A stretch of 64,000 nt of DNA, from positions 32,001 to 96,000 of IMG/VR virus record IMGVR_UViG_3300032227_000318; one strand, given 5' to 3'. A program made the translations under genes and the position numbers. The notes beneath the pieces are model-generated. The model saw nothing but the letters and a program-made list of their open reading frames with translations. It ran no database searches and had not been told where the DNA came from. Position 1 is the first letter of the stretch. Each line of letters starts with the position of its first letter. Source of the DNA: a virus. Taxonomy: Duplodnaviria > Caudoviricetes. Positions 1,448 through 48,840 of this stretch are shown piece by piece.

Positions 1448-1717
1448 TTAGTCATTCTTGGATACGAAACTGTTAAGCTTTTCAGCCAACCAGATGATAG
1501 AGTCTGCGTCCATATTAGGGATTGTTGGGAATGGAGGAAGATCAACATCCTTGCCTTGTGAAAGAGCAATAGATGCCTTTTCACGTTCAAGATTCCAATC
1601 ATTCTCAAGACGAATGCGTTCGTTCATGTTTTGCTCAATGATAAAGTCACGGGCAATATGAAGAAGTTCTAGACGGATTTCGTAAGGGTTCTTTGACATG
1701 ATATACTCCTGTGTCAT
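1448..1717 (-). CDS. Hypothetical protein
   Basis: KNPYEIRLELL..A..AEKLNSFVS pattern typical of T4-like phage ORFs. Confidence 0.65.
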   Translation of the reverse strand: MTQEYIMSKNPYEIRLELLHIARDFIIEQNMNERIRLENDWNLEREKASIALSQGKDVDLPPFPTIPNMDADSIIWLAEKLNSFVSKND

Positions 1718-1726
1718 GTGTGTTAA

Positions 1727-2032
1727 GGTGGCCCGTTCTGTTTCTAGGTGGAACCATACCCACAGGTATCACGCTGCTAGAGCGTAAGCCTTAGATGCAA
1801 TGAAGTTATCGTTTGCATTTAGAGTTTTGCGCTTGTACGTAGTCGCCTACGGTTATCTCCAGTCAACTATTCTACACTCAGTCGATCCTAGTTCGCCCCC
1901 ATCAGAGATACATCACAACAAACTCTTTCGTGTCTTGCAAGGTCTCATTACAAGAGACGGTGATGTATCTGTGGTGGAGGCGCCGGGTACTGCCCCCGGG
2001 TCCTCAGTGTTTTTTGTTTTCCTTCAACGATA
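1727..2032 (-). ncRNA. ssrA: Permuted (two-piece) tmRNA, tag ANDNFIASKAYALAA
   Basis: Acceptor piece ending CTCCACCA at 1972, hairpin spacer 1901-1971, coding piece starting GGGGGCGAACTAGGATCGAC at 1900, tag frame 1816-1769; outer ends approximate. Confidence 0.93.
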
Positions 2033-2048
2033 ACATAGTATATATGCT

Positions 2049-2678
2049 TTAAGCATACACACTATTCTTTGCTGGCACCTGAATGAAACCTTCAGGTTTA
2101 CCATCATCTCCTACAATAGCGGCTGTTAGATGCCCGCCGTATACACAAGCAGTGTCCACATTTGTGCGATCTGCTACTTGCTCAATCTTACCTAGTCTTG
2201 GTGTATGCCCGTGATAGAAGTGCTTGCCAAGTTGTGCATGTTGATGCTGTTCATATCGTAACCACAAGAGCATTGCATCTGTTTGTTCATTCATTGGAAA
2301 TGCAGGATTAGCACCAGCATGAGCAACGATGATCGTGTCATCCTCATAGTACTTTGGTAGTGCCTTCATCCAATCCATTGCCCAATCGGGTATATAATGG
2401 CCGCGAAAACCACCGAAGCTGACAATTGTTTCAGCAGCATACATGTATTCACCAGCGATAAGCATGTCTTCGTGATTGCCCATTAGAGCAACATGACCAC
2501 GCTGTTGCATCTTCATAATGAACTCTACAACTTCTTTGGACTTAGGACCACGATCAACATAGTCACCAACAAAGATCATTCTAAAATCACCATTCGCATG
2601 TTCGTCTATCTTATGATATAGTTCTAACAACTCATCATAGCAACCATGCACATCACCAATCACATAACGTTTCATCAC
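2049..2678 (-). CDS. Ser/Thr phosphatase-like metallophosphoesterase
   Basis: GDVHG, GDYVDRG, GNHE, HGHT motifs. Confidence 0.9.
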   Translation of the reverse strand: MMKRYVIGDVHGCYDELLELYHKIDEHANGDFRMIFVGDYVDRGPKSKEVVEFIMKMQQRGHVALMGNHEDMLIAGEYMYAAETIVSFGGFRGHYIPDWAMDWMKALPKYYEDDTIIVAHAGANPAFPMNEQTDAMLLWLRYEQHQHAQLGKHFYHGHTPRLGKIEQVADRTNVDTACVYGGHLTAAIVGDDGKPEGFIQVPAKNSVYA

Positions 2679-43550: not shown

Positions 43551-44048
43551 TTATTCTACCTTCGTTTGCGGTAAATGTTGAATAGCGTCTTTGTAACGGT
43601 CAGCACAGTAAGATGCTGCCCACGCATTTGGCTTCACTAGCGGCACAATGTTACACATACCACGAATGTAGCCAACAGCTTCATTTATAACACAGCTTGA
43701 ACCATGCTTCATGTCTGGATTAATGTCAAGATGGATTTCAGTTTCACGATCTTCTAGAACGTCATAAAGATCCATGTATAGTTGAGCCGTCTTCATCACT
43801 TCATTCATCAGACGCATACGAGGCTTATCTTTCTGCTGATCATAGTCACGTTCACGGACAATGCCACCAAATACCTTACAACCGTTCTTGCCGTTCTTAT
43901 GAACAACGACAACGTTGATGTAGTCGGCATGCCAAACACCATCAATCTGAAAACGTTCAGAGTCGCCACCTAGATATATCTTTGTTTCGGGAGTTTGTTC
44001 TTGAATGAACGCACGAACTTCGTCCAGGTTCATGTTCTTTCTGATCAT
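43551..44048 (-). CDS. RNase H-like YkuK family protein
   Basis: IYLGGDS, RLMNEV, EIHLDIN, KPNAWAASYCAD. Confidence 0.8.
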   Translation of the reverse strand: MIRKNMNLDEVRAFIQEQTPETKIYLGGDSERFQIDGVWHADYINVVVVHKNGKNGCKVFGGIVRERDYDQQKDKPRMRLMNEVMKTAQLYMDLYDVLEDRETEIHLDINPDMKHGSSCVINEAVGYIRGMCNIVPLVKPNAWAASYCADRYKDAIQHLPQTKVE

Positions 44049-47245: not shown

Positions 47246-47319
47246 TGGTAGTTCCTACTGGTTTCGATCCAGTGATGCGCGGTTATCGGCCGCGAGTTTT
47301 ACCATTAAACTAAGGAACC
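47246..47319 (-). tRNA. tRNA-Ile(GAT), 5' end overlapped by HNH ORF
   Basis: CGCGG-CCGATAA-CCGCG, CCA. Confidence 0.9.
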
Positions 47320-47787
47320 ATATTTCTTTTTTCTATCTCTGCCTCGCCATGTGGTAGTTTGACTGTGGCAGTTTGGACAAAGACATTCTAAATTTTCTCT
47401 ATTGTTATTAGTTCTAATGCCGTCTTTGTGTTCAAGTTCAAGTGTTAATGGCTGATCTAACCATCGGTCATTACCACATCTATTACACTTGAAATTCTGT
47501 TCTTCTAAGACTTTTAGACGAATGGCCGCTCTGCTTTTGAAATCCGTGGTATCTCTATTCTTTCTTAGAATAGCATAATGCTCACTGAAAGCTACATTCG
47601 GCCCTATTTTCACACCTTTGTTCCAAGCAGTTCTCTCGCCTGTCTTAAAGGCGTGATTAGGATCAAAGTCAATACCCCTAATCTTTTTCTTTATAGGTCC
47701 GATACAAGCATCCACATGTCTATCAAAGTTATTTACGGTGATGTTTCTATCACATTTATCACAGTGTTTAGTTGGCTTTTTACTCAT
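47305..47787 (-). CDS. HNH homing endonuclease
   Basis: CNRCG, LELEHKDG...NN..ENLECLCPNCHSQT; ACTAAATA at 47811-47818. Confidence 0.88.
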   Translation of the reverse strand: MSKKPTKHCDKCDRNITVNNFDRHVDACIGPIKKKIRGIDFDPNHAFKTGERTAWNKGVKIGPNVAFSEHYAILRKNRDTTDFKSRAAIRLKVLEEQNFKCNRCGNDRWLDQPLTLELEHKDGIRTNNNRENLECLCPNCHSQTTTWRGRDRKKKYGSLV

Positions 47788-47820
47788 AGTTGTCTCCATA
47801 GTAGCACATCTATTTAGTAA

Positions 47821-47852
47821 AAGCGCCTACTCTACCATTGAGCTACAAGCCA
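47821..47852 (-). pseudogene. 5'-half tRNA remnant (Ile-like) truncated at the anticodon
   Basis: TGGCTTG-TA-GCTC-AATGGTA-GAGT-A-GGCGC-TT then late promoter. Confidence 0.8.
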
Positions 47853-47978: not shown

Positions 47979-48064
47979 TGGTGGGTGAGAAAGGATTCGA
48001 ACCTTCTAAGTCATAGACAACGGATTTACAGTCCGCCACAACACGCCGTCGTTGCCGCTCACCC
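47979..48064 (-). tRNA. tRNA-Tyr(GTA)
   Basis: Cloverleaf, long variable arm, CCA. Confidence 0.93.
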
Positions 48065-48073
48065 GAACAAGTA

Positions 48074-48250
48074 TTATTCTTTTTCTGGCCACTGAACTAT
48101 TAAGTTTGGGTCAGTAACCTTTACATCATTAATACGAATGCCACCCTGTTCAATCAATCGTCTAGCTGCACTCTTGCTTTTTGCAAATCCAGCAGCAATA
48201 ACTATGTCGACTAACGAAACAGTTCTTGGTACAGTTATTTCAGGTAACAT
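48074..48250 (-). CDS. Stand-alone S4 RNA-binding domain resembling the TyrRS C-terminus (58 aa, not in ORF track)
   Basis: SLVDIVIAAGFAKSKSAARRLIEQGGIRINDVKVTD; AGGAG RBS. Confidence 0.8.
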   Translation of the reverse strand: MLPEITVPRTVSLVDIVIAAGFAKSKSAARRLIEQGGIRINDVKVTDPNLIVQWPEKE

Positions 48251-48341
48251 TGTATTCTCCTAAAAAGCGCCAACCTCACAGTTATTCGGCTGGCTGTTTG
48301 ACATTCATGACGCGCATCACTGCTACGTAGTCAGATCAAAT

Positions 48342-48424
48342 TGGTGCCAAGGGAGGGAATCGAACCCCCGATGTTTGTATGCCTCCTTACAAGAGAGGTG
48401 CTGTCGCCGCTGAGCCACCTTGGC
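48342..48424 (-). tRNA. tRNA-Thr(TGT), extended variable loop
   Basis: CCTCT-CTTGTAA-GGAGG, CCA; G1 is the last base of the HNH stop codon. Confidence 0.88.
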
Positions 48425-48840
48425 TAATAACTTTTACCTTCAGCATATCGCTGTCTTCTATAGTGTCTGCCATTACCTTTATTTGCGCCTTTGTAAGTTG
48501 GCGTTTGTGAATGGCAGTTTGGACAAATCAAACATAGATTTTCTATGTTGTTATTCTCACTGTTGCCGTCTTTATGTTCTAAATCAAATACGATTGATTT
48601 ATTGTTCCATTCAGTTATACCACAAGTATAGCATTTGTTGCCGTATGTGTCAATGATATATTTTTTTATCTGTCTTTTACCAGGAACAACACCCTCTTCA
48701 AGCCAATTTTTTATCTTGTCTTTACGAGTATATTCATGTTGACACTTTTGTGAACAATATTTACCAGTAGATGAATATACATTTCTTACTGTGTGTTCTT
48801 TATTACAATTTTGACAGACTATGATTCCTGATTTACCCAT
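48424..48840 (-). CDS. HNH homing endonuclease
   Basis: KYCSQKCQ, CYTCG, DLEHKDGN..NN..NLCLICPNCHSQT; TATAAATA at 48867-48874. Confidence 0.88.
   Translation of the reverse strand: MGKSGIIVCQNCNKEHTVRNVYSSTGKYCSQKCQHEYTRKDKIKNWLEEGVVPGKRQIKKYIIDTYGNKCYTCGITEWNNKSIVFDLEHKDGNSENNNIENLCLICPNCHSQTPTYKGANKGNGRHYRRQRYAEGKSY

Follow-up and report, generated by a model that had tools for sequence, protein, structure and literature searches.

A stand-alone tyrosyl-tRNA synthetase-type S4 domain encoded directly before tRNA-Tyr in a phage tRNA array

The S4 gene and its place in the tRNA array

The DNA analysed here (the window) is a stretch of 64,000 nucleotides that forms part of a 110-kb IMG/VR virus record with an estimated completeness of 67%. 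The source phage is T4-like: the contig of a close relative carries T4-type replication genes (the gp45 clamp, the gp44 and gp62 loader, and RegA), and the DNA polymerase of the window is ~50% identical to cyanomyovirus polymerases. Between 43 and 51 kb, the window holds a minus-strand array of 28 tRNA genes, among which homing-endonuclease genes are scattered. Within this array lies a short open reading frame (ORF), P0001, which encodes an S4 domain of the tyrosyl-tRNA synthetase (TyrRS) type. The ORF, its immediate surroundings and a distant tmRNA gene relevant to one of the proposed roles are as follows.

47979–48064, minus strand: tRNA-Tyr(GUA), 86 nt, with a long variable arm and an encoded CCA (ARAGORN; Rfam tRNA, 37.5 bits)
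48074–48250, minus strand: S4-domain ORF P0001, 58 amino acids plus a TAA stop, from ORF call and translation; start ATG at 48250–48248, stop codon TAA at 48076–48074
48257–48261, minus strand: AGGAG ribosome-binding site of P0001, with a 6-nt spacer to the ATG, read from the sequence
48251–48341, minus strand: spacer of 91 nt from tRNA-Thr to the S4 start
48342–48424, minus strand: tRNA-Thr(UGU), the upstream neighbour of the S4 gene in the same array (ARAGORN; Rfam, 54.5 bits)
1678–2064, minus strand: tmRNA, with the tag peptide ANDNFIASKAYALAA, 46 kb from the S4 gene

The original prediction had described a 58-residue ORF that is preceded by an AGGAG ribosome-binding site and ends 9 nt before tRNA-Tyr. 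Both parts of this description were borne out, as the start, the stop and the ribosome-binding site lie where expected and exactly 9 nt (48073–48065) separate the S4 stop codon from the tRNA gene called by ARAGORN. The tRNA-Tyr gene is also supported by an alignment with the tRNA-Tyr genes of relatives, in which the phage tRNA retains its long variable arm and the variable arm differs from one relative to another. Since ORFs that abut or overlap tRNA genes are common in the array, nothing unusual attaches to the short gap that separates the S4 gene from tRNA-Tyr. A promoter and terminator scan of the 91-nt spacer upstream of the S4 ORF found no promoter-like site, and the predicted RNA fold of the spacer was not better than that of shuffled sequences (z = −1.46). 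Because the spacer holds no promoter-like site, the S4 gene is probably transcribed as part of the tRNA-array transcript.

Several other genes of the array are closely packed against tRNA genes. The end of an HNH endonuclease ORF (47305–47799, minus strand) overlaps tRNA-Ile(GAU), and a tRNA 5′ half (47820–47852) lies just upstream of this ORF, while another HNH ORF (48424–48840) ends on the first base of tRNA-Thr. A gene with a PF04308 'RNaseH_like' domain (43554–44048, minus strand) adjoins tRNA genes in the window, and the same is seen in an unrelated contig that carries an S4 relative (L073:1243–1806), so that genes of this type may repeatedly accompany phage tRNA genes.

The remainder of the 110-kb, ~67% complete record was searched for enzymes with which an S4 protein might be associated. 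No match to the TyrRS catalytic domain (PF00579) was obtained in it, with the control being found in 14 of 14 genomes. Likewise, Rnl1, HAD_PNKP and cREC gave no match in the record; the Rnl1 and HAD_PNKP searches found their targets in a control genome (G002), and the cREC search was run without a positive control.

A stand-alone TyrRS-type S4 domain

By every test run, P0001 is a stand-alone TyrRS-type S4 domain. The Pfam S4 family (PF01479) matches residues 15–53 of P0001 with 49.3 bits (cut-off 22.8), and the TyrRS-specific family PF22421 (SYY_C-terminal) matches the protein with 41.0 bits (cut-off 27) over profile positions 9–61 of 83 and is also matched by 20 of 20 stand-alone relatives. 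The best NCBIfam match is the C-terminus of tyrS (TIGR00234), which reaches 31 bits against a cut-off of 113.8 and leaves the catalytic part of the model uncovered. In a search of the PDB with a profile of the 20 stand-alone relatives, the top six matches were TyrRS (36.7–26.6 bits), and uS4 scored 24 bits at most. Further, a metagenome scan with the core motif of the family returned mostly full-length bacterial TyrRS, at up to 71% identity over 35 residues. Every residue of the TyrRS C-terminal pattern quoted in the original prediction was found in P0001 (L13, D15, G21, S25, S27, A29-R30-R31 and I33, followed by Q35-G36-G37, I40-N41, K44-V45 and D47), and the assignment to the TyrRS type stood when profiles of other S4 subfamilies were compared. 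An Hsp15-type S4 protein was rejected at 12.6 bits against a cut-off of 148 (NF007673), and ribosomal protein uS4 at 20–26 bits against cut-offs of 82–177 with the S4 core alone matched; the NCBIfam model of TlyA was also far below its cut-off.

The predicted structure agrees with this assignment. An AlphaFold model of P0001 (pLDDT 91.5) has the β-α-α-β-β-β layout of the alpha-L fold, with strands at residues 10–12, 38–40, 43–45 and 51–53 and helices at residues 13–20 and 26–34. S4 proteins fill the lists of structural matches obtained with Foldseek and VIA-align. The best Foldseek match is the T. thermophilus TyrRS–tRNA-Tyr complex, with a TM score of 0.75 over 59 columns, and VIA-align places all 58 residues on residues 347–406 of E. 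coli TyrRS with a Z score of 7.8. Other S4 proteins reach Z scores of at most 6.7 over 45–50 residues in VIA-align, so that the only full-length structural matches are TyrRS.

P0001 corresponds to a precisely delimited but incomplete part of the synthetase. It starts at the boundary between the TyrRS linker and the C-terminal domain (E. coli 347, T. thermophilus 353) and ends ~18 residues short of the domain end, being aligned to residues 347–406 of the 424-residue E. coli chain and to residues 353–414 of 432 in T. thermophilus TyrRS. Both the catalytic domain and the helical anticodon-binding domain are lacking. Also absent is the final β-hairpin with its basic cluster, whereas the full-length TyrRS from the metagenome scan continue with G-K-R/K-x-F; several members of the family have a tryptophan (W54) after the third strand in place of the hairpin. 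The basic residues K26, R30, R31 and R39 are conserved in the phage protein, the net charge of which is only about +1, and K26 and R30 align with K367 and R371 of B. stearothermophilus TyrRS. In mutagenesis of the latter enzyme by the Bedouelle laboratory, R371 and the cluster R407, R408, K410 and K411 reportedly proved to matter for tRNA binding. Half of the basic residues that bind tRNA (R407, R408, K410 and K411) thus presumably reside in the C-terminal hairpin that P0001 lacks.

The ORF is a real gene under purifying selection rather than debris. Homologues of 58–73 residues were found at 98, 78, 72, 69 and 68% identity, together with a wider set of short proteins at 42–56% identity that likewise lack the TyrRS tail. 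The dN/dS ratio is 0.08 (L006 vs L019), 0.11 (window vs L016) and at most 0.3 in the other estimable pairs, with dS being saturated in many of the pairs used, and the reading frame is intact across relatives down to 45% identity. The ESM Atlas contains clusters of 44–94-residue proteins of the same type, with few recorded taxa, mostly tailed phages. One relative of 63 residues, P0004, is labelled 'tyrosyl-tRNA synthetase' by its source database, an over-annotation from the domain match.

The stand-alone family was seen only in uncultured phage or metagenomic contigs. A megablast search of the region against GenBank phages gave no match, and tblastn searches with three family members against the same set returned only unverified faecal contigs, of which the one examined encodes a full-length TyrRS. 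Hence, no stand-alone homologue was found in the cultured phages of GenBank, many of which carry tRNA arrays. A maximum-likelihood tree built from 21 stand-alone and 24 full-length domains is poorly resolved; the stand-alone forms cluster in it, and a single origin is neither shown nor contradicted. Because the tree cannot show one origin of the stand-alone forms, the gene neighbourhoods seen in distant relatives may be no guide to P0001.

Genomic neighbours of the relatives

In the closest clade (69–98% identity; the window, L002/L003, L015 and L016), the S4 gene always directly precedes tRNA-Tyr, with a gap of 9 nt in the window and L002/L003, 1 nt in L016 and 0 nt in L015, and its upstream neighbour is tRNA-Thr or tRNA-Ala. 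More distant relatives lie before other tRNA genes. P0017 (53% identity; L017/L018) is encoded in a syntenic array 4 nt before tRNA-Gln(UUG), and a subfamily at 54% identity is found 0–1 nt before tRNA-Arg(ACG) in five contigs (L006, L019 and L080–82); in a near-complete 164-kb genome of this subfamily, tRNA-Tyr lies in the same array, 3.2 kb upstream of the S4 gene. Linkage to tRNA-Tyr in other phages thus held for the nearest clade and failed for the relatives at ~53% identity, which precede tRNA-Gln or tRNA-Arg. As the original prediction had named a lack of conserved linkage as an argument against itself, this argument applies in part, because the ~53% relatives adjoin other tRNAs. The adjacency to tRNA-Tyr is a single evolutionary event, and the chance of such an adjacency in an array of 28 tRNA genes is ~1 in 28, or ~1 in 14 if both sides are allowed.

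Two genes upstream of the S4 gene, one of the contigs with P0017 holds an element (L017:669–758) that resembles tRNA-Tyr in its GUA anticodon loop, long variable arm and CCA end but has an oversized D region. ARAGORN did not call it, and since its Rfam match has an E value of 0.7 and a poor alignment, it was not counted as linkage.

A link to tRNA arrays or tRNA repair, by contrast, recurs, in subfamilies of possibly shared origin. In a tRNA array of soil phages, a shortened S4 ORF with the same M-L-P-E start runs 38 nt into tRNA-Lys(CUU) (L057:2001–2156 and L058), and is either a copy in decay or a still smaller version of the protein. Two relatives, P0019 and P0023, are placed among RNA-repair genes (L068, L077). 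The gene order in L077 (1963–4380) is HAD_PNKP, the S4 relative (46% identity), a T4 Rnl1-type RNA ligase and a P-loop kinase; in L068, the S4 gene is followed by cREC and HAD_PNKP. One further relative, P0008 (L073), is encoded 1.6 kb from tRNA-Tyr, near a gene with an RF-1 domain. In the subfamily of L007–L012, L035 and L040, no tRNA or repair gene was found within 2–2.5 kb of the S4 gene.

The RF-1-domain protein of L073 (4303–4731) comprises 142 residues, and the contig also has scattered tRNA genes beside the S4 relative. Judged by its domain, it is possibly an ArfB-like peptidyl-tRNA hydrolase.

Possible roles of the phage protein

The C-terminal domain of TyrRS binds the variable arm and the anticodon stem of tRNA-Tyr (PMC1934993, PMC4275181). 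P0001 appears to derive from this S4-like domain of a bacterial TyrRS, which in the synthetase is lodged at the elbow where the anticodon stem of tRNA-Tyr meets the long variable arm, and it may bind the tRNA body at the same anticodon-stem/variable region. In the closest clade, tRNA-Tyr would be the most likely preferred ligand, and a specificity for tRNA-Tyr is a plausible prediction. The protein could then serve tRNA maintenance in infection, either by covering a nuclease-sensitive site or by retaining tRNA that is damaged or still a precursor so that it can be processed or repaired. We infer both the RNA binding and the role, and give about even chances to the reading that P0001 binds tRNA as an accessory protein in phage tRNA maintenance or counter-defence. 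The genomic context supports such a tRNA-binding helper.

Within this reading, shielding of tRNA-Tyr is a sub-case that we regard as rather improbable, although it has a clear biological setting. The PtuAB nucleases of Septu and retron-Eco7, which are countered by phage tRNA-Tyr genes, cleave the variable arm of tRNA-Tyr at positions 48/49 (PMC13096335, PMC11555353). Because PtuAB cuts tRNA-Tyr in the variable arm, a shield of this arm is mechanistically attractive; a cover placed there would, however, also compete with host TyrRS for charging, since the same site is involved. Against the accessory role, and a specificity for tRNA-Tyr in particular, it can be held that P0001 has lost the C-terminal hairpin and has little net positive charge, and that isolated C-terminal domains of fungal mitochondrial TyrRS bind RNA non-specifically, with similar affinity for unrelated RNAs (PMC4275181). 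For these isolated domains, K1/2 values lie at 50–80 nM whether the ligand is a group I intron, a group II intron or poly(U) (PMC4275181). The accessory role is also weakened by the negative searches for Rnl1, PNKP and cREC in the ~67% complete record, and by the subfamily that has neither tRNA nor repair genes within 2–2.5 kb.

P0001 can be compared with several known systems. It resembles the TyrRS C-terminal domain (PF22421; 1jh3, 1h3e and 6hb5) in sequence and fold over 58 residues, including the G-x-A-x-S-K-x-x-A-R-R-x-I motif, but it is unfused, lacks the last ~18 residues, and is encoded by a phage, within a tRNA array. With Trbp111, Arc1p and the LysRS KTSC-domain protein of jumbo phages, the last of which is phage-borne and has been proposed to support phage translation (PMC7824862), it shares the principle that an accessory RNA-binding module of a synthetase is encoded alone; their fold and origin are nevertheless unrelated (an OB fold or KTSC, against S4 here). 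Hsp15, RqcP/YabO, YbcJ and uS4 have the alpha-L S4 fold and a similar size, whereas their partners are ribosomes and not free tRNA, and their alignments cover just 45–50 residues with lower Z scores. Relatives of P0001 are encoded between genes for Pnkp and Rnl1, which recalls T4 Pnkp and Rnl1 repair, and P0001 itself is encoded beside a phage tRNA-Tyr, the tRNA that PtuAB cuts, as in the countering of retron-Eco7 and Septu by tRNA-Tyr of T5 and T6. However, no S4 protein is among the parts of the described Pnkp/Rnl1 and PtuAB-countering systems. No published description of a stand-alone TyrRS-derived S4 protein in phages was found, and the RNA-repair survey of Burroughs and Aravind (2016) may mention the domain.

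The strongest alternative is that P0001 acts as a general RNA chaperone or processing cofactor of the polycistronic tRNA-array transcript, which would bind non-specifically and aid folding or processing by RNase P and other RNases, neither favouring tRNA-Tyr nor taking part in defence. The identity of the downstream tRNA, which varies by subfamily (Tyr, Gln, Arg, Lys), is consistent with this, as are the indiscriminate binding of introns and poly(U) by isolated TyrRS domains (PMC4275181) and the position of the S4 gene within an array with which it is probably co-transcribed. Yet the subfamily in Pnkp/Rnl1/cREC operons, which has no tRNA genes nearby, would be left unexplained. Further, because array-bearing GenBank phages gave no stand-alone homologue, the processing of tRNA arrays does not in general require the S4 protein. 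We consider this alternative possible and only about half as probable as the accessory role in tRNA maintenance or counter-defence.

Two other roles appear quite unlikely, and to a similar degree. The first is competition with host TyrRS, in which the free domain would occupy the variable arm of host tRNA-Tyr and lower its charging, so that decoding shifts to a phage tRNA-Tyr that escapes the block or host translation stops. The domain is indeed a homologue of the TyrRS portion by which the variable arm is recognised, and it is encoded next to a phage tRNA-Tyr with a variable arm that differs among relatives. However, as the ~67% complete record gave no match to a TyrRS catalytic domain, the phage tRNA-Tyr still depends on host TyrRS, and as it keeps a long variable arm, it would be blocked too; moreover, relatives of P0001 adjoin other tRNAs or repair genes. 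The second is that of a ribosome-associated S4 protein of the Hsp15/RqcP/YbcJ kind, acting on stalled ribosomes or peptidyl-tRNA together with the phage tmRNA. Small stand-alone S4 proteins of such a kind exist, the phage has a tmRNA, and the relative P0008 is encoded 1.6 kb from the gene for the possibly ArfB-like RF-1-domain protein. This proposal is countered by the score of the Hsp15 model, by the closeness of both sequence and structure to TyrRS over the full length, by the lack of any link to RqcH and by the distance of 46 kb to the tmRNA.

That P0001 is a functionless, decaying remnant of the 3′ end of a captured tyrS is very improbable: although the protein is truncated relative to the full domain, a shorter copy is overlapped by tRNA-Lys in L057/L058 and a database calls one relative 'tyrosyl-tRNA synthetase', the dN/dS ratios of 0.08–0.3, the frame kept intact down to 45% identity, the gene's own ribosome-binding site and start exactly at the domain boundary, the confident predicted fold and the lack of any tyrS remnant upstream, where the 91-nt spacer is followed by tRNA-Thr, all argue for a maintained gene.

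The reading of P0001 as a tRNA-binding accessory protein can be extended to the whole family. Phages may repeatedly have kept a stripped-down TyrRS domain for counter-defence, which would serve as a PtuAB-blocking tRNA-Tyr clamp in the phage described here and as a presenter of broken tRNAs to Pnkp and Rnl1 elsewhere; this extension is speculative, and we think it rather improbable. If P0001 were merely a non-specific RNA chaperone, the finding would be a modest one. In any case, the database name 'tyrosyl-tRNA synthetase' on a 63-residue relative is misleading.

Phage tRNA genes are now seen partly as an answer to host nucleases that destroy tRNA, and tRNA-Tyr is a proven battleground in this respect (Septu, retron-Eco7). 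If P0001 is a shield or a repair aid, it adds a protein layer to the conflict over tRNA-Tyr, and the relatives in Pnkp/Rnl1 operons strengthen this link. The family would then, if the proposal is true, represent a novel class of proteins that shield tRNA or act as adaptors in its repair, and P0001, at 58 residues, would be a natural minimal tRNA-binding module.
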